Assembly (NCBI GenBank): GCA_965221125.1 | Contig: CBDCRW010000007.1 | Coordinates: 768,001-832,000, forward strand | DNA from: Alphaproteobacteria bacterium | Lineage (GTDB): Bacteria > Pseudomonadota > Alphaproteobacteria > UBA828 | DNA length: 64,000 nt | Direction of reading: 5' to 3' | Part shown: positions 9,020 to 39,923 of the stretch, in pieces | Position numbering within the stretch: the first letter of the stretch is position 1 | How the letters are laid out: every line of letters begins with the position of its first letter | Made by a program: the position numbers and the translations under genes | Notes under the pieces: generated by a model | Database searches by the model: none | What the model saw: only the letters and a program-made list of their open reading frames with translations | What the model was told of the DNA's origin: nothing

Positions 9020-9865
9020 TCAGTCGGCCAGCGGTGCCAGGAGGTCGTTGCGGCCGCCGAGGAAGTTGACCACCACCCGCATGTTCTCTTCGGTGTTGTC
9101 GAAGAGCGTCGAGTGGTTCGAGCCCCGGATCACGTGCTTGATGGCGTTCGGGATGTTCTCGGCGAGCCACGTCTGGCCTGCGCCGGTCTCGCCCACCTCC
9201 CACGGCGTCATGATGTCCTCGTCGCCGCCGATAACGAGCGTCGGCGCCTTGATCTGGGCGGCGTAGGGCCTGAGGTCCATCTCCATCATCGCGCGGCATG
9301 CCCGCTGATAGACCTCCCTGCGGTTCGAGCGCTCCAGGATGTCCTGAATCATGTCGACAGCGCCGGGGCCGTTCGGCCCGTCGAGGAATTTCCGCGATAG
9401 CGCCTGGACCGCGATCAGCTCGGCAAGGGTGCGGCTGCCGCAGCCATATGCTTCCGAGATGTCGATCCAGTTCTGGAAGGTGAGGCGGCCGGCCAGGTCG
9501 AGCTTCGCGGCCGAGCAATTGATGATGAGCCGGTCGGTTCGGTCGGCATATTTCGCTCCGAAAACCTGGGCGATCATCCCGCCCATGGATGTGCCGTGGA
9601 TGTGGGCGCGCTCGATCTTCAGCGCGTCCATGAGGCCGGCGACATCGTCGGCCCACACCTCCATGTCGTAGGGCTGGATGGGTTTGTCCGACTGCCCGTA
9701 GCCCCGCATGTCGAAGTCGACGCAGCGGAAGTATTTGGACGCGATCGGCGTCGCGGTGGCGAAGTTGAAGTGGCCGAAGCCTGCGCCGTGGATGTGAACC
9801 ACGGGCGCGCCGTCCCCCGTCGTCTCGTACCAGAGCCTTACGCCGTTGACCTCCGCGAACGCCAT
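9020..9865 (-). CDS. Alpha/beta fold hydrolase
   Basis: MAFAEVNGVRLWYE start with GGAGG RBS; DMRGYGQS, GTSMGG nucleophile elbow. Only the last ~281 aa of track ORF 9020-11716 are real. Confidence 0.92.
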   Translation of the reverse strand: MAFAEVNGVRLWYETTGDGAPVVHIHGAGFGHFNFATATPIASKYFRCVDFDMRGYGQSDKPIQPYDMEVWADDVAGLMDALKIERAHIHGTSMGGMIAQVFGAKYADRTDRLIINCSAAKLDLAGRLTFQNWIDISEAYGCGSRTLAELIAVQALSRKFLDGPNGPGAVDMIQDILERSNRREVYQRACRAMMEMDLRPYAAQIKAPTLVIGGDEDIMTPWEVGETGAGQTWLAENIPNAIKHVIRGSNHSTLFDNTEENMRVVVNFLGGRNDLLAPLAD

Positions 9866-10024
9866 GACCGCCTCCCTCGCCAGCTTGGCCCGCCGTGGGC
9901 GGCCGATCTTACACCGACCCGCGCCGGAATGATGCAGGCCGGCGCCCGATTCTGTTTGCCATCGGGCAACGTTGCGCCCAAAGTCCGGCCGGCGTCGCGC
10001 AGCGAAGACGGGGAGGGGCACGAC

Positions 10025-12334
10025 ATGGCGGAGGACCTGCGCCAAGCGGCGCTCGACTATCACCGCAAGCCCAAGCCGGGCAAGCTCGGCATCCACGCGA
10101 CCAAGCGCATGAACACGCAGCGCGACCTGGCGCTTGCCTACAGCCCGGGAGTGGCTGCCGCGTGCGAGGAGATCGCGAAGGAGCCGGCGCGGGTCTGGGA
10201 CTACACCGCGCGGGCCAACCTGGTCGCGGTGATCAGCAACGGGAGCGCGGTGCTGGGCCTGGGCTCCATCGGCGCACTCGCCTCCAAGCCCGTGATGGAA
10301 GGCAAGGCAGTCCTCTTCAAGAAGTTCGCCAACATCGACGTCTTCGACATCGAGGTCGACGAGGGCGACGTCGACGCGCTGGTGGAGACCGTCGCCCGGC
10401 TGGAGCCGACATTCGGTGCGATCAACCTGGAGGATATCAAGGCGCCCGAGTGCTTCGAGATCGAACGCCGCCTCAAGGAACGACTCAACATCCCGGTGTT
10501 CCACGACGATCAGCACGGCACTGCCATCTGCGTCGCCGCCGCCGCGCTGAACGCGCTCCGGATCGTCGGCAAGGCGCCGGATGCGGCGCGGGTGGTGTGC
10601 TCCGGCGCAGGTGCCGCGGCCATCGCCTGCCTCGACCTGCTGCAAGAGCTTGGTGTGGCTCACGGCAACATCGCGGTGTGCGACAGCAAGGGCGTTGTCC
10701 ATGCGGGCCGGACTGACCTGAACGAGCAGAAGGCGCGCTACGCGATCGCCACCGATGCGCGCACGCTCGACGACGCCATCGCGGGCGCCGATATCTTCCT
10801 CGGCCTGTCCGGCCCCGGCACCATGACCCAGGGGATGGTGCGGAGCATGGGCGAGAGGCCCATCATCCTCGCGCTTGCGAACCCGACGCCCGAAATCATG
10901 CCGGAGGACGTGCTTGCCGCGCGGCCCGACGCGATCATCGCGACTGGGCGCTCGGATTATCCCAACCAGGTCAACAACGTCCTCTGCTTCCCGTTCATCT
11001 TCCGGGGCGCGCTCGATTGCGGCGCGACCGAGATCAACACGGCCATGAAGCTCGCCTGCGTGCGCGCGATCGCCGACCTGGCGACCGCGGAGTCCTCCGA
11101 TGTGGTGGCGGCGGCCTACGGCGACCAGTCGCAGAAATTCGGTCCCGACTACATCATCCCCAAGCCCTTCGATCCGCGCCTGATCGAGACCGTGCCGGTC
11201 GCCGTGGCCGAGGCGGCGATGGAGAGCGGAGTCGCGGCCCGGCCGATCGCGGACCTCGACGCCTACCGGGCCGAGCTCGCGGGCCTCGTGTTCCGCACCG
11301 GCTATCTGATGAAGGTGGTGCTGGACCAGGCCAAGAAAGCGCCGCAGCGCGTGGCCTACGCCGCCGGCGAGGACGAGCGCGTGCTGCGCGCCGCCCAGCA
11401 GGCGGTCGACGAGGGCATTGCGCGCCCGGTCCTGATCGGCCGGCCATCCCGCATCGAGGAGCGCATTGACCGGCTCTCGCTCCGCATACGGCCGGGGAGC
11501 GATGTGGAGGTCGTCGACCCGCAGCGCTACGAGAGATACGAGGACTACTGTCGGCTCTACCACGAGCTGATGGGGCGCCGCGGCGTCGCGCCTGCGGCGG
11601 CCCGCACGACACTGCGCAATCAACCCACGGCGATCGCCTCGATGATGGTGCGGACGGGCGACGCCGAGGCAGTTCTGGCCGGGCCGGCCCCGCGCTTCCG
11701 GCCTGAACTCAAGCACGTGCTCGACGTCATCGGGCTCCGTTCAGGCGCCGACTCGGCGGCGGCGCTGCAGGTGCTGATCCTGAGCAAGGGGGTGTTCTTT
11801 ATCGCGGACACCGATATCACCGAGGACCCAAGCCCGTCGCAGCTCTGCCAGTCGGCGGTGCTGGCGGCGGAGCAGGTCCGCCGCTTCGGCATGACGCCGA
11901 AGATCGCGTTGTTGTCGGCGTCCAATTTCGGCAGCAACGACCTGGCAGCCTCGGTGAAGATGCGTGAAGCGCTGCGTCTTCTGCACGAGCGCGCGCCCGG
12001 CGTGGAGGCGGAGGGAGAAATGAACGCCGACGCTGCGCTCGACGAGGCGGTTCGTGCGGAGATGTTTCCCAATGCGCGGCTCAAGGGCCAGGCCAACACG
12101 CTGATTCTGCCCGACCTGACTTCAGCCAACATCGCCTACGGCATGCTCAAGGTGCTGGCCAATGGCATCTCGGTGGGCCCGATTCTGCTCGGGCTCGCAG
12201 CGCCGGCTTATGTACTGCATGGGTCCGCCACCACGCGGGGCGTGCTGAACATGACCGCGGTTGCCGCCGTCGAGGCTCAAAGCCGCGCGGGGGAGAGCGG
12301 CATCGCTCGCGCCGCCGCCGACGCGGTTGGCTGA
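10025..12334 (+). CDS. maeB: NADP-dependent malic enzyme with phosphotransacetylase-like C-terminal domain
   Basis: [37 protein letters not shown]-terminal PTA-like domain ([10 protein letters not shown]). Confidence 0.96.
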
Positions 12335-26014: not shown

Positions 26015-26950
26015 ATGTGCGGAATAGCGGGCGTGATGTTCAAGCACGGTGAAACGGGTCTGTCGGCGGGCCGGGCGCTGATCGACATGCTGGACGGGTG
26101 CCAGCACCGGGGCCCGGATTCGACCGGCTTTGCGCTCTACGAAGATACCGATCCGGGTCAGCTTCGGTTGCGCTTCCTGGTCGAGGAGGAGGAAGGCGCC
26201 GGCGGCGTCGGCCACAACAGCGCCGAGAGCGCGATTGTGGACATCCGCAAGACACTCGAGGAGCACGGCGCGGGAATCGTCGACAGCGAGCGGGTCGGCA
26301 ACAGCTACCGGGTGGTGGTCCGCTTCTCGGGCGACGTGCAGAAGCTCACCTACGACATGGAGCACGCGGCGACACTGATCTCGATCGGCGAGAGCCTGGA
26401 CATCCGCAAGGACGTGGGCGGCGCTCACGACGTGGACGAGGTCTTCCACGTGGGCGAGGTTGCGGGCACTCACGGGCTCGGTCATGTCCGCCTGGCGACC
26501 GAGTCCGAGGTGAAGCCCGAGGCGGCGCATCCTTTCTGGGCGACCGGCTTTACCGACATCGCGATCGTGCATAACGGCCAGATCACCAACTACTGGAAGA
26601 TGCGCCGCCGCCTCGAGCGCCGCGGCTTCGCGTTCCACACGGACAACGATAGCGAACTGATCGCAGTCTATCTGGCGGACAAGCTCGCCAACGAGGTACC
26701 CCTGGAGGACGCGCTGAAGACCTCGATCGACGACCTCGACGGCACGTTCTCGTTCCTGGTCTCGACCAAGGATGAGATCGGCTACGCCAAGGATCACCTC
26801 GCGGCCAAGCCGATGATCATGTACGAGAACGACGACCTGATCGCGATCGCCTCGGAGGAGGTCTCGTTGAACCGTCTCTTCCCGGGCCGCGCGCTCGACA
26901 CGCGGGAACCGCCGCCGGGGAGCTATGGCACATGGTCCAGATTGACCTAG
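26015..26950 (+). CDS. Class II (Ntn) glutamine amidotransferase, GlxB/MgsA-like
   Basis: N-terminal MCGIAG, QHRGPDS, GHVRLATES, AHPF, HNGQ, DSE. Confidence 0.9.
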   Translation: MCGIAGVMFKHGETGLSAGRALIDMLDGCQHRGPDSTGFALYEDTDPGQLRLRFLVEEEEGAGGVGHNSAESAIVDIRKTLEEHGAGIVDSERVGNSYRVVVRFSGDVQKLTYDMEHAATLISIGESLDIRKDVGGAHDVDEVFHVGEVAGTHGLGHVRLATESEVKPEAAHPFWATGFTDIAIVHNGQITNYWKMRRRLERRGFAFHTDNDSELIAVYLADKLANEVPLEDALKTSIDDLDGTFSFLVSTKDEIGYAKDHLAAKPMIMYENDDLIAIASEEVSLNRLFPGRALDTREPPPGSYGTWSRLT

Positions 26951-28893: not shown

Positions 28894-31413
28894 ATGGCGA
28901 TCCTGGAGGAGATGAAGGCCGGTGGGAACCTGCTCGCCGAGCTGCCTGACGACACGGAGGACGCGCACTTCGTGCCGGCTCCGTGCCAGATCGCCTGCCC
29001 GGTGGGGACGGATGCACCCTCCTACATCGCCTACATCTGGGAGCGGAAGTTCGAGGAGGCGTTCGAGGCGATCACGGCGACCAACCCGTTCAGCTCGATC
29101 TGCGGACGGGTGTGCGATGCGCCGTGCGAGCCCGCGTGCCGGCGCACGGATTCCGACGGCCCGGTGCAGATACGCAACCTCAAGCGCTTCGTCATGGACG
29201 AGGTGGGGCACGACTACGATCCGCCCCCGGTGCCGATCCGCCACGAGCAGAGCGTGGCTGTGGTGGGCTCCGGGCCTGCGGGCTTGACGGCGGCGCACGA
29301 GCTTTCGGTCGCGGGCTACAAGGTGCACGTCTACGAGATGACCGACCGCCTGGGCGGCATGATGATCTGGGGCATTCCGGCGTTCCGGCTGCCGCCCGGG
29401 ATCATCCAGGAGGATATCGACCGCATGACGCGGCGTTGCCCCGGCATGGAGGTGCACCTCAACACCGCGCTCGGGCGCGACGTGACGCTCGACGATCTCA
29501 AGGCGCGGCACGATGCCGTGATCCTCGCCATCGGCGCGTGGTGGGGCAAGAAGATGGGCATACCGGGCGAGGACGACACGCGCGTGATTGACGGCGTGCA
29601 ATTCCTCCGTGACGTGAACGAGGGCGCCCGGCCCGAGATGCCGGAGACGGTCGTGGTCGTGGGCGGCGGCGACGTGGCGATGGACGCCTGCCGCGTCGCG
29701 AAGCGCCTGCCCGGCTGCAAGCATGTGAAGGTGATCTACCGGCGCGGACCGGCGGAGATCCCCGCGCGCAAGATCGAGCTGGAAGGCGCGATCGAAGAGG
29801 GGATCGAGTTCGTCTACCACACGCAGCAGACCGCCATCGTGCCGCAGGGCAACGAGCTTGCCGTGCGCTGCGTGCAGACGACGCTGGGCGACCCGGACGA
29901 ATCCGGCCGGCGCGCGCCGGTGAACGTGCCGGGCACGGAGCACGACATCGCCTGCGGCATGATTATCGCTTCGGTGGGGCAGGAGGGTCTCTGCGAAGAC
30001 CTGAAGCAGCGGGGGATGATGCTGTCGGACCGCGTGCGGACCGCGTGGGACGACATGCGCACGAGCGATCCCAAGGTGTTCGCGGCCGGCGACGGGGCTT
30101 TCGGCGGGTCCACCATCGTCATGGCGATGAACCACGGCCAGCGGGTCGCCTACTACGTGAAGGCGTTCCTCGAGGGCCGCGCTGATCCGCTGCCCTACCG
30201 CACGCCGCACCGCACTCGGCGCGTGCCGGTGGCGCAGGACCTGGATTGGGAGCTGCTTCCGGTTCAGCACCCCGACTTCCTCGGCCTCGGCGACGATCCG
30301 GTGTCTTTCCCGGAGATCGAGACCACGTATGGCTGGGAGGCGGCGCGCAAGGAGGCGGCGCGGTGCTTCCGCTGCGACGCGGAGACCGGCTCGGCCGACT
30401 ACGCGGTGGGGCACCGCGAGGACATCTTCGTGATGGCCCGCACGGCGCCGGGGGATACCGCGGGCCAGCAGGCGATGCTGGAGAAGCGCCTGGGCGAGCG
30501 GGACGATCCCTTCCCGGACGAGCTTTCGGGCGTGCTGGACGATCTCGCCTTCCTGCCGGCGAACCTGTCGCGGCTGGTGATCGACCCCTACCGAGAGGCC
30601 TGCCGCATCGGCACCACGGTGGGCGGCACCGATCTCGCGCTGCCCTTCATGGTGACGGGATTCGACGATGCGCCGGTGGAAGTCCGCGCTGCGGTCGGGC
30701 GCGGCGTTGCGGAGGCGGACGCGAGCTACCTGGGAATGCAGCCCTTGGGCGACGGCGCGCGCTGGTTCCAGCTCGTGGTGCCGGGGCAGATTGCACCGAG
30801 CGCGGACGCGGCCGGGCTGATCCACGCCCTCGGCCACCGCTTCACGCCCGTCGAGGCGACCGCCGCGGCGGAGGGTCAGGTGCTCGGGCTTTCGGTTTCC
30901 TCGCCGGCGGTCCTGGAAGAAGCGATCCCCCATGCGCTCGACGCGGGCTTCGACATGCTGCTGCTGGATGGCAGCGCCGGCCTGGGCGCGCCCTGGGCCG
31001 AGCTGAGAGGCGCGCCCGATCTCACGATCCTGCGCGATGCCGTGGCGATCCTGCGGCGCCTCGACCGGGAGGAGGAGATCGACCTCGTCTACTTCGGCGG
31101 CGTGCGCTCGGGCACCGATGCGGCGAAGGTGATTGCACTCGGCACCGTCGCCGTGGTGCTGGGGGTGGCCGTGGGGCTTGCCGCCGGCGGCGCGATCACC
31201 GGCGCCCACGAGCTTGTGTTCTCGGCAGACCGCAGCGACGAGGACCGTACGGCAGGCACCGTCAACATCCTCAAGGCGACCGCCTCCGAGGCCTCGATGA
31301 TGGCGCGCTGCACCGGCAAGACCAACCTGCAGAACGTCGAGCCCGAAGACCTCCGCGCGCTCACCGTCGCGACCGCCACCGCAACCGGCATTCCTCTCGC
31401 AGGAACGCGGTAG
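28894..31413 (+). CDS. GltD-like Fe-S flavoprotein fused to a degenerate glutamate synthase FMN-barrel domain
   Basis: CQIACP, CGRVCDAPCEPAC, GSGPAG, GGGDVAMD, EAARCFRC; C-terminal LDDLAFLPANLSRLVIDPYRE, GGVRSGTDAAK, MARCTGKT..NVEPEDLRA. Confidence 0.88.
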   Translation: MAILEEMKAGGNLLAELPDDTEDAHFVPAPCQIACPVGTDAPSYIAYIWERKFEEAFEAITATNPFSSICGRVCDAPCEPACRRTDSDGPVQIRNLKRFVMDEVGHDYDPPPVPIRHEQSVAVVGSGPAGLTAAHELSVAGYKVHVYEMTDRLGGMMIWGIPAFRLPPGIIQEDIDRMTRRCPGMEVHLNTALGRDVTLDDLKARHDAVILAIGAWWGKKMGIPGEDDTRVIDGVQFLRDVNEGARPEMPETVVVVGGGDVAMDACRVAKRLPGCKHVKVIYRRGPAEIPARKIELEGAIEEGIEFVYHTQQTAIVPQGNELAVRCVQTTLGDPDESGRRAPVNVPGTEHDIACGMIIASVGQEGLCEDLKQRGMMLSDRVRTAWDDMRTSDPKVFAAGDGAFGGSTIVMAMNHGQRVAYYVKAFLEGRADPLPYRTPHRTRRVPVAQDLDWELLPVQHPDFLGLGDDPVSFPEIETTYGWEAARKEAARCFRCDAETGSADYAVGHREDIFVMARTAPGDTAGQQAMLEKRLGERDDPFPDELSGVLDDLAFLPANLSRLVIDPYREACRIGTTVGGTDLALPFMVTGFDDAPVEVRAAVGRGVAEADASYLGMQPLGDGARWFQLVVPGQIAPSADAAGLIHALGHRFTPVEATAAAEGQVLGLSVSSPAVLEEAIPHALDAGFDMLLLDGSAGLGAPWAELRGAPDLTILRDAVAILRRLDREEEIDLVYFGGVRSGTDAAKVIALGTVAVVLGVAVGLAAGGAITGAHELVFSADRSDEDRTAGTVNILKATASEASMMARCTGKTNLQNVEPEDLRALTVATATATGIPLAGTR

Positions 31414-31465: not shown

Positions 31466-32752
31466 ATGCGCGTTCACCTGAACTACGGCCGGGGACAACG
31501 GGCGGTCGATCTGCCTGACGATCTCGACGTCACGGTGATCGCCAAGCAGGCGATGCCGCTGCTCGCCGACCCGGCGCAGGCGATGGCCGACGCACTGGCC
31601 GAGCCCGTGGGCTGCCTGCCGCTGGCGGCGGAAGCGGCCCGTGCGAAGCGCGTTTGCATCCTCATCTGCGACTTCACGCGGCCGGTCCCCAACGGCGTGA
31701 TCCTGCCCCCGCTCATCCGCACCCTGCTTGGCGCGAGGCTCAAGCCGGAGCAAATCACCGTGCTGGTGGCGACCGGGCTGCACCGGCCCAACGAGGGCGG
31801 CGAGCTTGCCGCCCTGGTCGGCGATCCCTGGGTGCTGGAGACGGTGACCGTCGCCAACCACTTCGCCCGAGAGGACGCCGACCACTTGCTGGTGGGCACG
31901 ACCGGGCGTGGCACGGTGGTGCGTCTCGACCGACGCTTCATGGAGGCTGATCTCCGCATCGCGACCGGCCTGGTGGAGCCGCATTTCATGGCCGGCTGGT
32001 CGGGCGGTCGCAAGGTGATCGCGCCCGGCGTGGCCCACGCCGAGACCATCACCACCTTCCACAGCGCGCGCTTCATGGAGCATCCCAACTGCACCAACTG
32101 CGTGCTGGAAGGCAATCCGCTGCACGAGGAGCAGCTGGAGATCATGGCGATGATCGGCGGCGCGCGGGCTGTCAACAGCGTGATCGACGACGAGCGCCGC
32201 ATCGCCTTCCTCAACTACGGCGAGGTCGTGGCGAGCCACGCGGGCGCGGTCTCCTTCGCGGAGCAGTACTGCACCGTTCCCGTGGGCGAGCGCTTCAGGA
32301 CCGTGCTCACCAGCGCCGCCGGCTATCCGCTCGATGCGACCTACTATCAGACCGTGAAGGGCATGGTCGGCCCGCTCGAAATCCTGGAGCCCGGCGGCGA
32401 CCTCATCGTCGCTTCGGCATGCTCCGAGGGCCTCGGCTCGCCCCACTACGCAGACGCGCAGCGCCGCCTGGTGGAGAACGGGCCGGACCGCTTCCTCGAC
32501 GAGATCAGCGCCAAGACCTACGCCGCGATCGACGAGTGGCAGACCGAGATGCAGCTCCGCCCCATGCGGGCCGGCACGGTTCACCTCTACACCGACGGCC
32601 TCGCGCCCGCGGACCGCGCGCTCACCGGCGTCAACATGACCGAGTCGCTCGCCGATGCGGTGGCAAAGAGCGCCGCCCGCCACGGCGATACCCGCGTGGC
32701 CGTGATCCCGGAAGGCCCCTACGTGGTGCCGGTCCACCGTCCGTCTGCATAG
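31466..32752 (+). CDS. larA: LarA-family nickel-pincer racemase/epimerase
   Basis: DFTRP, ATGLHR, EPHFMAGWSGGRK, YQTVKG motifs; substrate unknown. Confidence 0.9.
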   Translation: MRVHLNYGRGQRAVDLPDDLDVTVIAKQAMPLLADPAQAMADALAEPVGCLPLAAEAARAKRVCILICDFTRPVPNGVILPPLIRTLLGARLKPEQITVLVATGLHRPNEGGELAALVGDPWVLETVTVANHFAREDADHLLVGTTGRGTVVRLDRRFMEADLRIATGLVEPHFMAGWSGGRKVIAPGVAHAETITTFHSARFMEHPNCTNCVLEGNPLHEEQLEIMAMIGGARAVNSVIDDERRIAFLNYGEVVASHAGAVSFAEQYCTVPVGERFRTVLTSAAGYPLDATYYQTVKGMVGPLEILEPGGDLIVASACSEGLGSPHYADAQRRLVENGPDRFLDEISAKTYAAIDEWQTEMQLRPMRAGTVHLYTDGLAPADRALTGVNMTESLADAVAKSAARHGDTRVAVIPEGPYVVPVHRPSA

Positions 32753-32866
32753 CTCTGCAGCCCTTCCCATCTGCCAAGCCAGCCGCACCCTTGGCGCAGC
32801 GCGAATCCAGGGGTACGTTTCCCGTCATGCGGCCGGGTTCGGCCGACCGATTGCGCGGAGGACGTT

Positions 32867-34702
32867 ATGGCTTGGCAAGGCAGACTGTTACGCGTTGACC
32901 TCACCGCCGGCACTTGCACGGAAGAGGCACTCAACATGGAGTGGGCGCAGGACTACCTGGGCAGCAGGGGCCTTGCCACCAAGTATCTGGTGGAGGAGAT
33001 GGACCCGAAGGCGGACGCGCTCTCGCCCGAGAACGTCCTGATCTTCGCGACCGGCCCGCTGACCGGGACCACGGCGCCGACCGGCGGGCGCTACACGGTC
33101 GTCACCAAGGGCGCGCTGACCAATGCCGCCGCCAGCTCGAACTCGGGCGGCTACTTCGGGGGCGAGCTGAAGCTCGCCGGCTGGGACATGGTGATTTGCC
33201 AGGGCCGCTCGCCGCGCCCGGTCTACCTCTACATCAAGGACGACCACGCCGAGCTGATCGACGCCGAGGGCTTCATCTGGGGCAAGTCGGTCTGGGATAC
33301 CGAGCCGGCGATCAAGGCGCGCCATCAGGACGGCGCCATCAAGATCGCCTCCATCGGCCGGGCCGGCGAGAACCTCAACCGCTACGCCTGCGTGATGAAC
33401 GACCTCGACCGGGCCGCCGGGCGCTCCGGCGTCGGCGCGGTCATGGGGTCCAAGAACCTGAAGGCGATCGCCGTGCGCGGCACGCGGGGCGTCGCCGTGA
33501 ACGATTCCAAGGCCTTCGCGGAGGCGGTGGAGCACGCCGCAAACGAGCTCCTGGTGAACCAGACGCGCAAGGACCTCACGCGCACCGGCACGCTCTCGAT
33601 GATCGACGTGACCCAGGCCTTCGGCAGCCTGCCGACCCGCAACAACCAGGATGTGCAGTTCGAGGGCACAAGCAACCTCGGCCCTGCCGCAATGACGAAG
33701 GTGCGGCGCTCCGACGGCTCCGCCAATCTGGTCAAGAACCGCGCCTGCTTCGCCTGTACCATCGGCTGCCAGCGCGCATCGAAGATGGATCCCACGCATT
33801 TCGCGGCCAAGGGCGAGGGCAGGGAGCGCTACAGGAGCGTGAGCGGCGGGCTTGAGTACGAATCGGCCTATTCGCTCGGCCCCATGGTGGGCGTGGACGA
33901 TATCGAGGCGGCGACCTTCGCCAACTTCGTCTGCAACGAGGACGGAATGGACCCGATCTCCTTCGGCGCCACCGTCGCGGCGGCGATGGAGCTCTACGAG
34001 GAGGGCGTCATCACCGACGCCGAGACCGGCGGCGTCGCCTACACCTTCGGCTCGGCCGAGGCGCTCTGCCGGGCGGCGGAGGAAGCCGGCACGGGCACCG
34101 GCTTCGGCAAGGATCTAGGCCTCGGCTCCAAGCGGCTCTGCGAGAAGTATGGCCGCCCCGAGCTCGCCATGGTTGCCAAGGGGCAGGAGTTCCCGGGCTA
34201 CGACGGCCGCTCGATGCAGGGCATGGGCTTGGCCTACGCCACCAGCAACCGCGGCGCCTGCCACCTGCGCGCCGACCCCTACGAGGACGACTTCTCCGGC
34301 GGCAAGCTGGAGGGCAAGGCCAAGATCGTGAAGGACACGCAGGATTCAAACGCAGCCATCGATTCGGTCGGCATCTGCGCCTTCCCGATGATGGTCTGGG
34401 GTCTCGATGAGGTCGCCAGTCTGGTGAATGCGGGCTGCGAGGGCGAGTGGACCGTGGACCGCCTGAACGAGACCGGCGAGCGCATCTGGAACATGGAGCG
34501 CCAATTCAACCTCGACGCCGGCTTGACCGCCGCCGACGACACGCTGCCGCATCGCATCCTCAAGGAGGCGGCGAAGAGCGGCTCCGGCAAGGGCAAGGTC
34601 TGCGAGCTCGACACCATGCTGCCGCAGTACTATGAGCTGCGAGGCTGGACGGCGGACGGGCGGCCCAAGGCGGAGACGATGCAGCGCCTCGGCCTCGCAT
34701 GA
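32867..34702 (+). CDS. aor: Aldehyde:ferredoxin oxidoreductase (tungsten AOR family)
   Basis: LLRVDLT, AGRSGVGAVMGSKNLKAI, CFACTIGC, EYE, GACH, YYELRGW; GGAGG RBS; candidate own promoter TTGGCG-17-TACGTT at 32791-32819. Confidence 0.93.
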   Translation: MAWQGRLLRVDLTAGTCTEEALNMEWAQDYLGSRGLATKYLVEEMDPKADALSPENVLIFATGPLTGTTAPTGGRYTVVTKGALTNAAASSNSGGYFGGELKLAGWDMVICQGRSPRPVYLYIKDDHAELIDAEGFIWGKSVWDTEPAIKARHQDGAIKIASIGRAGENLNRYACVMNDLDRAAGRSGVGAVMGSKNLKAIAVRGTRGVAVNDSKAFAEAVEHAANELLVNQTRKDLTRTGTLSMIDVTQAFGSLPTRNNQDVQFEGTSNLGPAAMTKVRRSDGSANLVKNRACFACTIGCQRASKMDPTHFAAKGEGRERYRSVSGGLEYESAYSLGPMVGVDDIEAATFANFVCNEDGMDPISFGATVAAAMELYEEGVITDAETGGVAYTFGSAEALCRAAEEAGTGTGFGKDLGLGSKRLCEKYGRPELAMVAKGQEFPGYDGRSMQGMGLAYATSNRGACHLRADPYEDDFSGGKLEGKAKIVKDTQDSNAAIDSVGICAFPMMVWGLDEVASLVNAGCEGEWTVDRLNETGERIWNMERQFNLDAGLTAADDTLPHRILKEAAKSGSGKGKVCELDTMLPQYYELRGWTADGRPKAETMQRLGLA

Positions 34703-34959
34703 AGGTGACGGTGGAGCTCATCGCCATCGAGCTCCCCGAATTCGGCAGCGCGAAGAGCCGCGAACTCGATCTGCAGGCGCGCGCGAACCTGGCGGATGCG
34801 CTCTCCGGCCTCGGCGTGGGTAGCGACCCGGCGATTCTCGCCATGGTGAACGGCGAGGCCGTGCCACGCGATCAGTGGCCCGAGACGCCGCTCTCGGCAA
34901 ACGACACAATCAGTCTCTTCCGGCCGTTCAAGGGGGGAGGGCTAGAATCCCGCCCATAA
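34699..34959 (+). CDS. MoaD/ThiS family sulfur carrier with C-terminal extension after GG
   Basis: 86 aa; MVNG...DTISLFRPFKGG followed by GLESRP; ATGA overlap with aor. Confidence 0.85.
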   Translation: MKVTVELIAIELPEFGSAKSRELDLQARANLADALSGLGVGSDPAILAMVNGEAVPRDQWPETPLSANDTISLFRPFKGGGLESRP

Positions 34960-36470
34960 CACTACTTTTGGGCTCCTGCAGTATGAACACCCCCGTCATG
35001 TTCGGTCGATTACGACGGTAAGCGCTCAACTCCTTACATCATCCAGGACGGACAACTCCTACATCAACTCTCTCTTTACCATATTGCAACACCAAGTCAT
35101 TCCTCCATAACTCTTACTTCTCTATGCGAAGTACAAAATCAAAATTTGGCGTGTTATGTTGAATTGCAAACTCAAATCGTCGGATAAGATGAGCATCGAA
35201 ACACATCATCCGCGTAGACGTTTTTGCATGCCGTTCCAACATTTGTGCTGCCTGTACCATGCGAAATAATTGCTTTAGGTCGAGTATCTGTAATAGACCA
35301 CTAGTTTTTCGACAAAACTCTCGCAAATACCTCGAACCAAATTCCTCCGCTTGGTCGAGCAACGTTAGATCCGGAACAAGAATTATTGCATGTGGCGGAA
35401 CGTCGCGCTCAACATTCAGTAAGTTTCCCTTCGTATCTGCAATGGGATAGCCTTGCTTCATACTGCGTATTGCGCCAGACAGTTGTTTCGATGCCTTGGC
35501 AATCTGCTTTTTTAAATTTGCGGATAGCTTGCTTCGTGTCGGCAACCGTTGTCTTGATAGTATCGCTAGAGTCTTTGATTCAAACAACACTGACCCATAA
35601 GAATGACTAAGCAAGAGGTCGCATAGTTCTCGCGACCCCGAATTCATGTAAACAGTAGGATTTTTCGCTGCTCCTTGCGGATTCAACTCGTCAATCAACC
35701 AAAAGGCGGTTTCCTCCTGTTGGCCGCCTTCATCAGGTTCAAATGCTGAGATTCGGCTTATTATTGCCTGACTGCTGATGTACCAATTGACTATTTCGTT
35801 CCACTCCTTAACTTGAACAACTTTCAATATGTGCTCTTCACTTTTTTGTTTGTCGGTGATCCAGTCGTCTAATCTAAGTGACACATACTTGGTTATTTCA
35901 GTGTCTTGTGACGAACAAAGATGGGCGGAATGAATCCAATCCATTAGAGGCGCTGCACACAAATTAGAGTCGCTTCGTGCCCAAGATGCATTTACAACAA
36001 GTTCGTTGAATAGGAACGTTACAAAATTGGGCGTAAAAATCATCGATCGAAGTGCAGATCTTTCATCCTCTGACTCCATCATGGACCAAACAACAGCGGG
36101 GTAGCTTGGATCGTCTTCGATTTTGATCCCATAACCCAGACAATTACGCGGAGTGCGAAAGAAGGGTAGGGTAAGGGTGTCAGCTTGACTAATATATCTG
36201 AGTAGCAATGTTGATGCCTTAATGAGAAAGGTCGGTTCAAGGCCATCTGCGCCGGTTGCCAAAGTTGCTCTTACAAGCTGAGGTACAGCCAAAAACTCCG
36301 CGTGATGGCGCTGTGAAAGAACATGCATCTCCGTCTCCTTAGCTCAATCGACCGGCCAAGTCGGAATTGGACGATGCCATTCGGAACGAGGATCGGCGTT
36401 AGAGTACCCAAAATCAATACGAGGTGTCTCAAGAAACAGCGAGTTTAGTCAGATGCTGGTTTGCGTAGGA
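34945..36470. mobile_element. Low-GC foreign islet (no transposase or integrase seen)
   Basis: Abrupt drop from very high GC to visibly AT-rich sequence between convergent moaD and bcp; boundaries approximate. Confidence 0.65.
35114..36328 (-). CDS. Hypothetical protein with probable C-terminal PD-(D/E)XK/NERD-like nuclease domain
   Basis: 404-aa open frame in AT-rich DNA; AAGGAG RBS; QEE...ELCDLLL...LFESK...KASKQL pattern. Confidence 0.75.
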   Translation of the reverse strand: MHVLSQRHHAEFLAVPQLVRATLATGADGLEPTFLIKASTLLLRYISQADTLTLPFFRTPRNCLGYGIKIEDDPSYPAVVWSMMESEDERSALRSMIFTPNFVTFLFNELVVNASWARSDSNLCAAPLMDWIHSAHLCSSQDTEITKYVSLRLDDWITDKQKSEEHILKVVQVKEWNEIVNWYISSQAIISRISAFEPDEGGQQEETAFWLIDELNPQGAAKNPTVYMNSGSRELCDLLLSHSYGSVLFESKTLAILSRQRLPTRSKLSANLKKQIAKASKQLSGAIRSMKQGYPIADTKGNLLNVERDVPPHAIILVPDLTLLDQAEEFGSRYLREFCRKTSGLLQILDLKQLFRMVQAAQMLERHAKTSTRMMCFDAHLIRRFEFAIQHNTPNFDFVLRIEK

Positions 36471-36953: not shown

Positions 36954-39923
36954 TCACTCCTTGTTGAGCGCCTCAGCGGGGGCCGCGATGAGGCGTCGAT
37001 AGGCGGCGCGGACGCGATCCTGGCTGCCGACGATCCTCTTCTCAAGGGAGGAAAAGTCTTCCATCGCCATCGCCCGCGCCAGCGTCTCCCGCACGCCCGG
37101 CGTGAAGCGCTCCACGTCTCGATTATGGCCGACGGTGAGACGGAGCAGGCCCTGGAGGCGCTGCAGAAAGGCGGCGCTATCGGCAAGCTCGGCCGCGTCG
37201 TCGGAGTCGAGAATGCCGGCCTCACCCAGCCGCCGGAACGCCGAAGGCGTCGACTGAACGAGAATCGACGGGTGCCGCGCGGCGTGCCGCAGCAGGTGGT
37301 ACTGGGCGATGAATTCGAGATCGAGAACGCCGCCCCGCACATGCTTGAGCCGCCACCTGTTCTCGGTCTTGCGTTCTTTGTCGACCCGTTCCCGCATCGA
37401 CGCGACATCCGCGAGCAGGGTGTCCGCGTCCCGGGGCGCGCAGAGGACCGCTCGAATGCCCTCCATCACGGTTGCGCAAAGCTCCCGGTCGCCCGCCACC
37501 GGCCTCGCGCGGGTGAGCGCCATGTGCTCCCAGGTCCACGCGTCCTGTTCGTGATAGCGGCGAAAGGCAGAAGCTTCGGTGGCGATCGGGCCCGAGCTGC
37601 CGGAGGGGCGCAGCCGCGTGTCGATTTCGTAGAGGCGCCCCTCGGCAGTGTGCGCGCTGAGGGCATGTGTCAGGCGCTGGCTGAAGCGGGCGAAGTAGTG
37701 GCTGGCCGCGAGCCCCTGAGCGCCGTCGGATTGCGCGTCCACCCCGTCGGGCGCGCCATAGACGAAGACCACGTCGAGGTCGCTGTCGAAGGTCATCTCG
37801 CGACTGCCGAGCTTGCCCAGGCCGAGGACCGCGAACGATGCGCCCGGCACGGCGCCGTGACGCCGCGCGAATTCATGCTGCACCTGGGGCAGCAGAGTCG
37901 CGATCGCCGTATCGGCGATGTCCGAGAGAGCGCCGGACAGCCTGTCGGCCGCCACGTCGCCGCGCAGGATCTGCATGCCGACCTGGAACTCGCGCTGGTG
38001 TTGCCAGCGTCTCACGTCGTCGAGCACGGCTTGTCCATCGGCGGCGGGAGCGAGGGTCCGTTGAAGATCGTCACGCAGCTCGTCCCGATCCGGCAGGCGT
38101 TCGTGAAGCTCGCCGCTCACGAGGCCTTCGAGCAGGTCCGGGCTGCGACTCAGGTGCTCGGCGATGCGCGGCGCGCTGCCCAGGATTTCCGCCAGCCGGT
38201 CGAGCAGGCCGGGATTGTCGTGAAGAAGCAGGAAGGGTTGCACACCGGACGGCAAGCCGCGCAGAAATTCGTCGAGCTTGCGGAACGCCGAGTCGGGATC
38301 GGCGGTGCCAGCCAGCGCGCGGAGGAGCGCCGGCATGAGTTCGGTCAGCAGTTCTCTGGCGCGCGTGCTGCGCGTGGCCATGATGCGGCCGTGGTGCCAG
38401 TGGCGCACCGTCGCCGAGACGGCGGTGGCATCGCCGAAGCCCATGCGCCGCAGGCTGGCCAGGGTATCGGGATCATCGGCGGTGCCGGTGAACACCAGGT
38501 TGCCGCCCTCCCCGCCGAGCGCGGGTTCGTCCTCGAAGAGGGCGGCATAGTGCTCCTCGACAGCGTGCGCGTGCGCGAGGAGCGCATCGGCCAGGCCGGC
38601 CTCGTCCTGGAAGCCCATGAGGCGGGCAACTGCGGTGCGGTTGTCCTCGTCGTCCGGTATCAGCAGGTCCGCTTCATCGTCGATCATCTCCAGCCGGTGT
38701 TCGAGCCGGCGGAGAAAGCGGTACGACTCGACCAGCTCGTCGACCGCCTCGCCGCTGGAGCGACTGGCAGCAGCAAGCGAGCGCAGGGCATCGCAGGTCG
38801 CGCGCACGCGTAGCGACGAATCGCGGCCGCCCCAGATCAACTGCTGCGTCTGTGCATAGAGTTCGATCTGGCGAATGCCGCCCCGGCCGCGCTCGATGTC
38901 GTGACCGGCGATGTCGATGGGGCGGCTGTCCGGCTCGACGGCGATCTGTCGCTTGATCGACTGAATGTCCTGGATGGCGGCAAAATCGAGATACTTGCGC
39001 CAGACGAAGGGCCGCAGTCGCTCCATCATGTCCGCGCCGACCGCTGGATCGCCGGCGACCGGGCGCGCCTTGATCATCGCGGCGCGCTCCCAGTTCTGGC
39101 CGTGACTCTCGTAGTACTGTTCCGCCGCCGCGATCGAGAGCGCCAGCGGTGTCGCGCCCATGTTGGGCCTGAATTTGAGATCGGTCCGATAGACGCAGCC
39201 GTCGTCGGTCCGTTCGCCGAGCAGGGTGGCGAGGTCACGAACGAGTCGGTGAAGTGTTTCCGTGGGCTCGCCCCGTCCCCGGTGCTGCACCCGCTCCGGG
39301 TCGAACAACACGAACAGGTTGAGCTGGCTCGAATAGGTGAGCTCGCCCGCGCCAAGCGCACCCACACCGAACACGGCAAGCCCGCACGCCAACGCCGGCT
39401 GATCGCGGTCCACGGGCACAAGGCTGCCGCGCGCGGCTGCCTCCTCGAGTAACTGGCCAAGTGCGCACGCAACGGCGGCATCGGCGAGCCGGGTCAGCGA
39501 CGCGGCTACCTCTTCATGCTGCCAGGCGCCGGCAATGTCGGCCAGCGCGACAGTAAGCGATGCCCGCCGCTTGGCCGCCCGGAGCCGCTGTTGCAGGGCA
39601 CGACGGCCATCGGGGCGATGCGCGATACCCGATATCTCTTCAAGTATGTCCGCTAACGCGGCGTTCGGGCCATGCTCGGCCGCCGCGCGGAGCTGGGCCG
39701 GTTCGCGGGCCAGCCACCGGCCGAGAGCGGGGCCGTTGCCGAACACGCCATCCATGAACGCTGAAGCGCGTCGATCGCCGACAAGCGCATTGGCGAAGGT
39801 TTCATCGGTGCCGCCGAGCGCCGCCGCCGCTGTCAGCCAGGCATCGCGCCCAGCGCGCGCGCGCGCGCCCGAGATCGGCTCGGGGCACATTGCGTCATCC
39901 TGAAGGAAAGGCAGAAGCGACAC
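36954..39923 (-). CDS. glnE: Glutamine synthetase adenylyltransferase/adenylyl-removing enzyme (N-terminal active site degenerate)
   Basis: Two nucleotidyltransferase repeats; YYESHGQNWERAAMIKAR, FVWRKYLDF, GKLGSREM..SDLD, DTRLRPSG, WEHMALTRAR. Confidence 0.94.
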   Translation of the reverse strand: MSLLPFLQDDAMCPEPISGARARAGRDAWLTAAAALGGTDETFANALVGDRRASAFMDGVFGNGPALGRWLAREPAQLRAAAEHGPNAALADILEEISGIAHRPDGRRALQQRLRAAKRRASLTVALADIAGAWQHEEVAASLTRLADAAVACALGQLLEEAAARGSLVPVDRDQPALACGLAVFGVGALGAGELTYSSQLNLFVLFDPERVQHRGRGEPTETLHRLVRDLATLLGERTDDGCVYRTDLKFRPNMGATPLALSIAAAEQYYESHGQNWERAAMIKARPVAGDPAVGADMMERLRPFVWRKYLDFAAIQDIQSIKRQIAVEPDSRPIDIAGHDIERGRGGIRQIELYAQTQQLIWGGRDSSLRVRATCDALRSLAAASRSSGEAVDELVESYRFLRRLEHRLEMIDDEADLLIPDDEDNRTAVARLMGFQDEAGLADALLAHAHAVEEHYAALFEDEPALGGEGGNLVFTGTADDPDTLASLRRMGFGDATAVSATVRHWHHGRIMATRSTRARELLTELMPALLRALAGTADPDSAFRKLDEFLRGLPSGVQPFLLLHDNPGLLDRLAEILGSAPRIAEHLSRSPDLLEGLVSGELHERLPDRDELRDDLQRTLAPAADGQAVLDDVRRWQHQREFQVGMQILRGDVAADRLSGALSDIADTAIATLLPQVQHEFARRHGAVPGASFAVLGLGKLGSREMTFDSDLDVVFVYGAPDGVDAQSDGAQGLAASHYFARFSQRLTHALSAHTAEGRLYEIDTRLRPSGSSGPIATEASAFRRYHEQDAWTWEHMALTRARPVAGDRELCATVMEGIRAVLCAPRDADTLLADVASMRERVDKERKTENRWRLKHVRGGVLDLEFIAQYHLLRHAARHPSILVQSTPSAFRRLGEAGILDSDDAAELADSAAFLQRLQGLLRLTVGHNRDVERFTPGVRETLARAMAMEDFSSLEKRIVGSQDRVRAAYRRLIAAPAEALNKE

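Follow-up and report, generated by a model that had tools for sequence, protein, structure and literature searches.

The window analysed here is a stretch of 64,000 nucleotides from an alphaproteobacterium, and the three adjoining genes of interest all lie on its forward (+) strand. The first (26015..26950, +, 311 aa, N-terminus MCGIAG) encodes a class II glutamine amidotransferase subunit of the GlxB/MgsA type, with Pfam matches to GATase_6 (E 6.5e-20) and GATase_7 (E 2.8e-18). The second, P0003 (26932..28890, +, 652 aa), is the active synthase subunit, a GXGXG domain with an FMN/Fe-S Glu_synthase barrel (Pfam PF01645, E 2.1e-88, residues 303-610; PF01493, E 1.6e-12). The third is the open reading frame 28894-31413 (+), encoding 839 aa. 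It starts with a GltD-like NAD(P)H/FAD module that has an N-terminal two-cluster Fe-S region (28894..30384, +, residues 1-497) and terminates in an invariant ARC.RCDAETGS. A linker of two helices follows (30385..30522, +, residues 498-543), and the rest is an FMN-type (beta/alpha)8 barrel that appears to be catalytically dead (30523..31413, +, residues 544-839 and the stop codon).

A preliminary description of this DNA, made from the sequence, had reported about 340 aa of extra protein beyond the GltD-like part, and these are indeed seen after EAARCFRCDAETGS (residues 487-500). It had placed the start of the feature at 30480, a position within the linker helices; the barrel itself begins at about 30523. 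All three motifs that it quoted are found. They are the arm motif DDLAFLPANLSRLVIDPYREAC (30538..30603, +), the most conserved stretch of the barrel, the retained beta-7 phosphate-loop motif LVYFGGVRSGTDAAKVIALG (31084..31143, +), and the C-terminal motif MARCTGKTNLQNVEPEDLRALT (31300..31365, +), which is common to stand-alone GlxD-type enzymes.

The GltD-like module matches PF14691 (Fer4_20, E 5.3e-23) and PF07992 (Pyr_redox_2, E 3.7e-32). Both the Cys-rich two-cluster region and the FAD/NAD(P)H Rossmann motifs are present, with C31, C35, C70, C74, C78 and C82 invariant in 33 sequences. Two NCBIfam families of putative GltS small-subunit-like proteins score below their cut-offs, NF009410 with 393.5 bits (cut-off 516) and NF009454 with 379.7 bits (cut-off 916). 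The closest solved folds are the large subunits of NfnABC/StnABC (35-37% identity) and GltS beta (32%).

The tail is modelled by AF2 as a complete TIM barrel (residues 544-839, pLDDT 92, pTM 0.87) that has its eight strands complete and lacks just helices alpha-2 to alpha-4. It is homologous along its whole length to the FMN domains of GlxD/MgsC-type glutamate synthases, far beyond chance; the preliminary description had seen Glu_synthase hallmarks at both ends. An hhalign comparison of 16 barrels with nine true FMN domains gives a probability of 100 and an E of 3.8e-49 over 336 aligned columns, and BLASTP aligns tail residues 47-339 with a GlxD-like paralogue in the same genome at E 2e-23. 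In Pfam the protein matches PF01645 weakly (E 7e-4, residues 681-764), with 19.3 bits against a cut-off of 20.4, and the six-frame genome search gives 21.1 bits, above the same cut-off.

Less specific searches recover mainly the shared fold. VIA-align gives Z 20-22 to FMN oxidases; the match to the FMN-dependent alpha-hydroxy-acid oxidases (Z 21-22) is one of fold only, and their family PF01070 stays below its cut-off (19.3 bits vs 24.9, residues 727-768 only). The same method aligns 267 residues with the synthase domain of GltS alpha (6s6s_A, 824-1189; Z 20.0, rmsd 3.1), the only GltS alignment among the matches listed. Foldseek lists FMN oxidases at TM 0.50-0.60, with GltS absent among the matches listed. 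When the sequence of the tail was compared with PDB chains, an approach too insensitive for this purpose, 46 matches came up at E up to 10; none of them is a GltS chain, and the FMN oxidases match only weakly (best E 1.3e-5). Pfam shows no DHO_dh or Fer4 match in the tail, and no NCBIfam family matches it.

The barrel has lost the catalytic residues of its relatives. Among 60 columns that are near-invariant in 15 true FMN domains, 15 are still present in 80% or more of 21 barrels, and all of these lie in beta-1 or in the barrel's last third. The positions M317, S318, G320, E345-G347, K453, T483 and C555/C561/C566 are found in 0/21 barrels and K390 in a single one, so that MS.GA, GEGG, the beta-5 Lys and the Fe-S Cys residues are missing from all of them. 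In the hhalign alignment the QGAKPG-RSP.RHPD loop is deleted. These losses bear out what had been noticed in the single protein (MSYGALS, GEGG, QGAKPG, the RSP.RHPD loop and the Cys cluster), and a full catalytic set is clearly not retained. The motifs mark the tail as a relative of the FMN/synthase barrel that has lost catalysis, and predict that it would be free of flavin.

What is retained is strongly conserved. Across 48 sequences, down to 29% identity, 16 barrel positions are invariant and another 25 nearly so; they include A56, R60, I63, D64 and P65 of the arm motif, and G308, K309 and E316-D319 of the C-terminal motif. In the phosphate loop G735, G740 and D742 are present in 21/21 barrels, while G736 and G757 are present in 17. 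Tail residues 111-200 are the least conserved part. A four-Cys metal site (C491, C494, C570, C806) was considered and dropped: stand-alone barrels and the natural fusion P0136 do not have the C.RC pair, and the last Cys moves its position or is missing (P0196).

The tail is not a copy of its neighbour. The preliminary description had explained it by duplication of the upstream paralogue, and this is refuted by the tree, where all barrels group in a single clade (SH-aLRT 100), with a true GlxD-like enzyme as its sister, apart from the clade of the P0003 FMN domain. BLASTP agrees, as the tail scores 87 bits with another paralogue vs 53.5 bits with P0003. A recent tandem duplication of P0003 is excluded on both counts. 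As judged from the sequences, the barrel is an old, single clade next to the GlxD-like enzymes, with an independent origin within the GlxD-type clade.

P0003 itself looks like a live enzyme. All its catalytic motifs and four Cys residues (555, 558, 561, 566) show no or almost no variation among 30 orthologues. The claim that the active neighbour is devoid of the SRLVIDPYRE segment holds for P0003 and for 29 aligned orthologues, and that segment is a normal hallmark of stand-alone GlxD-type enzymes. Both the YRE.C arm and the EPEDLR motif are absent from P0003 and its aligned orthologues, and the C-terminal motif of the barrel occurs also in the consensus of true GlxD-like proteins. The motifs thus show a complementary loss: the partner keeps catalysis without arm and EPEDLR, the barrel keeps these motifs without catalysis. 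Among FMN domains in loci that carry the barrel, 82/83 are without YRE.C, and 32/33 of those in loci without a barrel have it. This contingency is essentially one of two clades, and the loci without a barrel came from a search by the EPEDLR pattern; it has to be read as one evolutionary event and not as a statistic.

The barrel is under purifying selection, in line with the preliminary description. Against 14 close orthologues its dN/dS is 0.07-0.25, compared with 0.06-0.14 for the GltD part, 0.04-0.15 for P0003 and 0.10-0.40 for the linker. The protein has more than 1000 homologues, and a relative is found on at least 541 stretches of species-representative genomes, which flags an uncharacterised enzyme. 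In 80 genome loci the GltD part is present in 78, the GXGXG-FMN gene in 66 and the amidotransferase gene in 56, in the same order; the amidotransferase gene adjoins the other two in those 56, and the remainder are mostly cut contigs. Two natural fusions were found, GXGXG-FMN-GltD-barrel (P0128, 1486 aa) and GXGXG-FMN-barrel (P0136, 1031 aa). At six loci the barrel is a stand-alone gene or the fourth gene of the operon, and the DNA retrieved around it contains no GltD module.

Relatives are present in sponge and marine metagenomes. The neighbours of the loci include Amt transporters, a type III glutamine synthetase and methylamine-related genes, which points to nitrogen uptake in the ocean from ammonium or methylated amines. 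The ESM Atlas contributes leads only: clusters whose members are about 330 aa long, and others of 392 aa from Nitrososphaerota. Contigs from RNA libraries that are 80-99% alike span all 30 bins in runs X18 and X20, which does not establish transcription. Existing annotation reads only "FAD-dependent oxidoreductase" or "glutamate synthase", and among the papers listed in literature searches there is none on the fusion or the barrel.

The preliminary description had further suggested an active/inactive heterodimer with the protein encoded at 26932, and for this part the support is a prediction, together with the fusions P0128 and P0136. Co-folding P0003 with the tail gives an ipSAE of 0.82 (runs 0.81-0.83), the best of three controls reaching 0.00. 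The ipSAE mark is passed by 58/80 solved complexes and 2/110 mismatched pairs, counts that apply only approximately here because our own alignments were used. The runs have at least 92% of the contacts in common, with a partner pLDDT of at least 88. The pairing comes from one structure predictor and its face-to-face geometry was read from residue lists; no solved split GlxD-type complex exists as a possible template. FMN barrels commonly oligomerise, and the pass may therefore partly reflect likeness to such assemblies.

In the predicted interface, tail residues 51-67 (the arm) lie against P0003 residues 457 and 493-497. Tail residues 236, 238-241 and 245, from the phosphate loop, also take part, and the interface spans the QGAKPG and RSP.RHPD loops of the partner. 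The linker residues are placed on P0003 helices 589-604 and 624-648. The predicted interface residues have an entropy of 1.18 vs 1.95 bits for the rest of the barrel, and 0/10000 permutations were as low. Folded without the partner, the arm has a pLDDT below 50. The full-length AF2 model (pTM 0.57) shows low pLDDT at linker residues 495-517 and does not place the barrel confidently against the GltD part, and it is silent on intramolecular contact. The invariant R221, E226, K309 and E316-D319 are outside the listed interface, so that a further partner or role is likely too.

Taken together, we consider it probable that the C-terminal 296 residues, a paralogue of the GlxD/MgsC-type FMN barrel without catalysis, serve as a docking and capping subunit. 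Most likely the barrel clamps the adjacent live barrel as the fourth part of an uncharacterised nitrogen-assimilation enzyme. Its C-terminal face, the former active-site face, and the invariant N-terminal arm (FLPANLSRLVIDPYRE) would bind the catalytic face of the live FMN/Fe-S barrel in the adjacent GXGXG-FMN protein, and the linker helices ahead of the barrel would wrap the same partner. The GltD-like NAD(P)H/FAD/[4Fe-4S] module would thereby be anchored next to the partner's Fe-S loop, making possible an electron path from NAD(P)H via FAD and the Fe-S clusters to the partner FMN. The GlxB-like amidotransferase would provide the amine. The tethering of the electron donor put forward earlier is thus proposed for this architecture. 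The barrel is also found without any GltD module at the six loci above, so reductase tethering would be a secondary use and cannot be the general role. The physiological role of the enzyme may be in ammonium or methylamine assimilation.

A more tentative possibility is that a homo-oligomeric GlxD-type synthase was split by duplication into a live barrel without arm and EPEDLR and a dead barrel that kept both motifs and lends the arm in trans to the live active site. If true, two obligate halves would make up a composite active site, and a dead barrel of the central-domain kind would have been invented a second time, independently, in the glutamate synthase superfamily. The result would be a widespread enzyme of four modules, to which an NAD(P)H reductase may or may not be fused, for the assimilation of ammonium or methylated amines in marine and sponge-associated bacteria.

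The alternative that survives best, although we regard it as unlikely, is that FMN or some other phosphorylated ligand is still bound in the barrel at an intact beta-7/beta-8 phosphate site, making the barrel a second redox or allosteric site; it can be likened to the FMN barrel fused to a GltD-like module in dihydropyrimidine dehydrogenase (DPD). The invariant GG.R.G.D of the beta-7 loop would also fit such a retained ligand, and the conservation of the loop glycines and D742, the strong purifying selection and the FMN enzymes that head the fold matches all agree with it. DPD shows that a GltD-like module and an FMN barrel are workable together (PMC8097209). However, all ring-side and substrate-side positions are gone, including the beta-5 Lys, and residues 111-200 are the least conserved of the tail. 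There is no Fe-S cluster or ferredoxin domain wiring the barrel to GltD, the barrel occurs in operons that have no GltD at all, the phosphate loop lies within the predicted protein interface, and the DPD barrel is a poorer match (VIA-align, Z 15.0).

Slightly less probable still, the barrel may chiefly replace the GltB central domain, holding the GlxB-like amidotransferase on the synthase and lining the ammonia/amine tunnel, with tethering incidental. The split system has no Glu_syn_central domain in Pfam, and the occurrence of the barrel without GltD, the invariant residues outside the predicted P0003 interface and the cover of the partner's QGAKPG and RSP.RHPD loops all fit. But plain GlxBCD/MgsABC systems function without such a domain (loci L129-L171; PMC6237917), the one GltS alignment listed falls on the synthase part of 6s6s_A (824-1189) rather than on its central domain, and the protein has no match to PF04898 at E up to 0.01.

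It is very improbable that the GltD-barrel protein is a self-contained oxidoreductase with an unknown substrate in the barrel, standing beside the GlxB and GXGXG-FMN genes for metabolic reasons only. Its architecture resembles DPD and PreT/PreA (PMC8097209), and a LarA-like gene is next in 18/80 loci; against this stand the few invariant polar residues of the barrel, none at ring-side or substrate-side positions, the strict three-gene synteny, the natural fusions to the synthase and the stand-alone barrels in operons without GltD. That the tail is a functionless, decaying remnant is hardly credible: every catalytic motif is lost, and at one locus (L049) the barrel persists with a GltD stub only, the partner genes being absent upstream (a locus that also tells against the docking reading), but the dN/dS, the conserved positions, the high-confidence fold and the absence of stop codons from all 15 genomes of the class sample already contradict it.

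The closest sequence relatives of the barrel are the GlxD/MgsC stand-alone FMN subunits (GlxBCD, N-methylglutamate synthase), its sister in the tree. They have the FLP..L.R....YRE.C arm, the GG.R.G.D loop and the ARCGKT..N.EPEDLR..T..TG.PL.G tail in common with the barrel, which differs from them by a deletion of about 50 residues and by the absence of MS.GA, GEGG, QGAKPG, RSP.RHPD, the beta-5 Lys, GGTGA and the Cys-cluster positions. DPD and likewise PreT/PreA (PMC8097209) resemble the 839-aa protein in that a GltD-like NAD(P)H/FAD/2x[4Fe-4S] module comes first and a TIM barrel with the FMN-oxidoreductase fold after it. The DPD barrel is DHODH-like, FMN-binding and catalytic and precedes an 8Fe ferredoxin domain, whereas the present barrel is Glu_synthase-like and, by its motifs, catalytically stripped, with nothing downstream in the protein. 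The GltD-like modules of GltD and NfnABC/StnABC have the same fold and cofactor motifs as residues 29-497, but none has the C-terminal Glu_synthase-type barrel of the 839-aa protein.

Glutamate synthase is a textbook modular Fe-S flavoenzyme. Its central domain, a textbook example of a decayed fold, is to our knowledge the only dead barrel described in it so far. That domain (GltB residues 423-780, Glu_syn_central) is non-catalytic, packs on the live barrel and lines the access path (PMC8097209 and PMC5011417), and both it and the present barrel are alpha/beta modules thought to be duplicates of the FMN/synthase barrel. Three beta/alpha units are gone from the central domain, which lies inside the synthase chain, while the present barrel, of separate origin, keeps eight strands minus helices alpha-2 to alpha-4 and is encoded on the reductase subunit or by its own gene. 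It would add a second, independently derived dead barrel that is still full-length and that moves between subunits, occurring by itself, attached to the reductase or to the synthase, or as part of a fusion of all modules. A dead barrel with complementary loss in its partner may offer a clean natural system for the origin of pseudoenzymes from oligomeric enzymes.

The C-terminal barrel of the 839-aa protein P0002 is a catalytically dead, conserved paralogue of the Glu_synthase barrel, which strictly co-occurs with synthase genes, is found in several fusions and has a motif pattern complementary to that of its live counterpart. P0002 (28894-31413, + strand) is the last gene of a tightly packed forward-strand cluster, after a class II amidotransferase of the GATase_6/7 type by Pfam (26015-26950, 311 aa, beginning MCGIAG) and P0003 (26932-28890, 652 aa), which carries a GXGXG domain (Pfam E 1.6e-12) and a Glu_synthase barrel (residues 303-610, E 2.1e-88). 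The first part of P0002, residues 29-497, is a GltD-like module (Fer4_20 5.3e-23, Pyr_redox_2 3.7e-32); for residues 29-494 the closest NCBIfam model, NF009410, scores under its cut-off. By structure and identity the module (28894-30384) is closer to the large subunits of electron-bifurcating NfnABC/StnABC than to the beta subunit of GltS, the identities being 37% to 9bov_A, 35% to 9n5u_A and 32% to GltS beta 6s6s_E.

The remainder of P0002, here called the tail, is a Glu_synthase relative, which confirms the preliminary description. Pfam gives sub-threshold matches to Glu_synthase (19.3 bits, cut-off 20.4, residues 681-764) and FMN_dh (19.3 bits, cut-off 24.9), and NCBIfam returned no family for the tail. 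A profile-profile comparison of 16 tails with nine genuine FMN domains (five from the same genome, namely P0003, GltB and three paralogues, plus four from databases) obtained a probability of 100 and E 3.8e-49 over 336 columns, and BLASTP of the tail aligns residues 47-339 with a GlxD-like paralogue encoded on contig 2 of that genome (87.4 bits, E 2e-23, 29% identity). The predicted fold agrees. The AlphaFold2 model of the tail, built from a 48-row alignment, has a pLDDT of 92.0 and a pTM of 0.87 and contains eight strands, with the helices between strands 2 and 5 absent. In VIA-align it resembles flavocytochrome b2 (Z 22.3, rmsd 3.1, 250 aligned), type II IPP isomerase (Z 21.9) and the A. brasilense GltS large subunit (Z 20.0, rmsd 3.1, 267 aligned), while the barrel of DPD is less similar (Z 15.0). 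The matched GltS residues, 824-1189, belong to the synthase domain and not to the central domain by the limits stated in PMC8097209.

To describe the loss of catalysis, 15 true FMN domains and 21 tails were aligned jointly; one sequence, P0185, was left out because its match fell into two pieces. Sixty columns are near-invariant, with one residue shared by at least 14 of the 15 true FMN domains. The tails keep that residue (in at least 80% of the 21 rows) at only 15 of these columns. The 15 positions are confined to beta-1 and the final third of the barrel; among them are the beta-7 phosphate-loop residues G735, G736, G740 and D742. None of the 21 tails has the Met or Ser of MS.GA, the E or GG of GEGG, the beta-5 Lys, the Thr of GGTGA or any of the three invariant Cys, and the loop from QGAKPG to RSP.RHPD, about 50 residues, is deleted. 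The list of lost catalytic motifs given earlier is therefore correct. Four cysteines outside known clusters (C491, C494, C570, C806; window 30355-30396, 30601-30603, 31309-31311) are invariant in 33 full-length proteins and are not retained in stand-alone barrels.

On sequence evidence the barrel is not decaying. Compared pairwise with 14 close orthologues (NG86), the barrel has a dN/dS of 0.07-0.25, the GltD part 0.06-0.14, P0003 0.04-0.15 and the linker 0.10-0.40, and 16 tail positions are invariant among 48 sequences. In a sample of the window's class, 15 of 301 genomes contain a P0002 relative, one copy each and free of stops. More than 1000 proteins, mostly of 830-870 aa and with tail identities of 59-99%, match the tail at E up to 0.001; a 50%-clustered library holds 500 representatives at this limit and 66 at up to 1e-30. 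At least 541 stretches of species-representative genomes encode a relative, among 568 pattern-matched stretches listed. The hosts of the 80 loci that were kept are uncultured Alpha- and Gammaproteobacteria, Planctomycetota and a few others. One MAG chromosome (L022 and L023) carries the three-gene cluster twice, both copies showing the same identities to the window, and the window's flanking genes are present at only one of them. Six sponge-metagenome runs from five studies (X5-X7, X9, X12, X16) have 21-27% of sampled words in common with 28894-31413.

The barrel had been described as a duplicate of the upstream paralogue, which is wrong. In a quick IQ-TREE analysis of 36 domain sequences (315 columns, GltB root, SH-aLRT support only) all 21 tails form one clade with support 100, the seven P0003-type FMN domains form a separate clade, also with support 100, and the sister of the tails is a genuine GlxD-like enzyme, P0208 (support 96). 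The BLASTP match of the tail to P0003 is also weaker than that to the contig 2 paralogue, 53.5 bits and confined to the C-terminal half. The topology indicates a single, ancient origin of the barrel from the GlxD/MgsC type, and not copying of the adjacent gene. The N-terminal arm and the C-terminal motif are no speciality of the tail either, as FLP..L.R....YRE.C and ARCGKT..N.EPEDLR..T..TG.PL.G are the consensus of genuine stand-alone GlxD-type enzymes. It is the live partner that lacks the arm: at loci with the barrel, 82 of 83 FMN domains are without YRE.C, the exception being the FMN protein of a second MgsABC-like set in L077, whereas at loci without the barrel 32 of 33 have it. This contrast amounts to effectively two clades, and the loci without barrel were recruited by the EPEDLR pattern itself. 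In L077 a second MgsAB-like pair of amidotransferase and GXGXG genes (9124-10751) lies directly 3' of the barrel gene.

In 78 of the 80 genome loci the barrel is preceded by the GltD part; 66 have a GXGXG-FMN gene and 56 the amidotransferase. The order is always that of the window, and absences are mostly found at contigs cut short. In the exception, L049 (7218-9041), an intact barrel with 63% identity follows only a stub, ...ARC.RCDAETGS, behind unrelated genes, and no GltD, synthase or amidotransferase gene was found within 8 kb upstream. Glycine-betaine-type ABC transporter genes surround this barrel. Other arrangements are the fusions P0128 (1486 aa, GXGXG-FMN-GltD-barrel) and P0136 (1031 aa, GXGXG-FMN-barrel, without GltD) and stand-alone barrels, about 360 aa long and with a start of their own. 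A metagenome scan gave 79 loci, 29 of them with GltD and barrel. In six others (L098, L102, L103, L106, L107, L109) a separate barrel gene comes after amidotransferase, GXGXG and FMN, with no GltD match at E up to 1e-8 within up to 15 kb; the rest are mostly plain GlxBCD/MgsABC-like operons without a barrel. The fusions, the stand-alone barrels and the GltD-less operons place the barrel in the synthase core, and the reductase fusion is one of several arrangements. The idea of an inactive partner barrel holds in kind, while its proposed role as a tether for the reductase is too narrow given the GltD-less loci.

Pairing with the active barrel is predicted by co-folding P0003 (30-row alignment) with the tail (48 rows). 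The ipSAE is 0.82 (0.81-0.83), and 0.00 for the best of three controls; of 80 solved complexes 58 reach the ipSAE mark, as do 2 of 110 mismatched pairs, counts that are rough because self-made alignments were used. At least 92% of the contacts are common to the runs, and the partner pLDDT is at least 88. The model supports binding between P0003 and the tail. Because FMN barrels often form oligomers, likeness to such assemblies may account for part of the score; no split GlxD-type complex was found among solved structures. On P0003 the predicted contacts are 385-394 (QGAKPG), 419-433, 454-459, 479-504, 525-530, 547-557 beside the Cys cluster and helices 589-648, overall the strand-end loops at the C-terminal side of the barrel. 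On the tail they are linker helices 1-42, the arm 49-67, 203-207, the phosphate loop 236-245, 258-269, 287-306 and the C-terminus. From these residue lists, the two barrels would pair face to face with the arm in between. The predicted interface residues show stronger conservation than the remaining barrel (entropy 1.18 versus 1.95 bits). None of 10000 random sets, drawn without regard to segment contiguity and burial, had so low an entropy. The arm has a pLDDT below 50 in the protein folded alone, which fits a segment that orders upon its partner.

The neighbouring genes suggest a physiological setting. In a scan of 39 of 83 candidate flanking ORFs, the ten distant GltD-fused loci contain Amt transporters (4), glutamine-synthetase-like genes (3) and GntR/FCD regulators (3). 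All three glutamine-synthetase-like genes are over the TIGR03105 cut-off for type III GS, the family of gamma-glutamylmethylamide synthetase. Of the six GltD-less loci, four have Amt 3' of the barrel, three a GS-like gene and two a DAO-type oxidoreductase, and L103 has MTTB and URO-D family genes. The MgsABC domain set is that of GlxB/GlxC/GlxD, as described in PMC6237917.

In the window, an alpha/beta hydrolase, an M20 peptidase and a Liv-type ABC transporter lie upstream of the cluster on the opposite strand. On its 3' side (31466-34959) follow a LarA-like nickel-pincer racemase homologue (332.6 bits, under the NF033504 cut-off of 460), a tungsten/molybdenum-type aldehyde:ferredoxin oxidoreductase and a ThiS/MoaD-like gene; 3' of the barrel the LarA-like gene occurs in 18 and the oxidoreductase in 8 of the 80 related loci. 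The G+C content of 34001-36000 is 0.555 compared with about 0.67 in the surroundings, and the 404-aa ORF at 35114-36328 (- strand) matches no Pfam family at E up to 0.01; this stretch is possibly foreign DNA. GlnE, the glutamine synthetase adenylyltransferase, lies 5.5 kb downstream of the cluster (36954-39923, - strand) and falls inside the 17-kb fetched stretch in 6 of the 80 loci, all six close relatives. Canonical gltB and gltD lie on another contig of the window's genome (contigs C1, C2, C4, C5; L001, L002, L004, L005), which besides them encodes three further GlxD-like FMN proteins with lengths of 455, 485 and 548 aa; the 548-aa protein has a Rieske-ferredoxin-like N-terminal region. The cluster is therefore an addition and not a replacement.

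According to our model, the barrel is predicted to clamp onto the catalytic face of the live barrel, and would itself be flavin-free. In the window it would anchor the GltD-like module near the Fe-S loop of its partner, whose FMN would receive electrons from NAD(P)H by way of FAD and the Fe-S clusters. Literature searches listed no description of this barrel domain. It may help to form the amine path from the amidotransferase, like the central domain of GltB, for which such a role is described in PMC8097209 and PMC5011417. Within the modular enzymes of the glutamate synthase family, the P0002 barrel system is a newly recognised variant.
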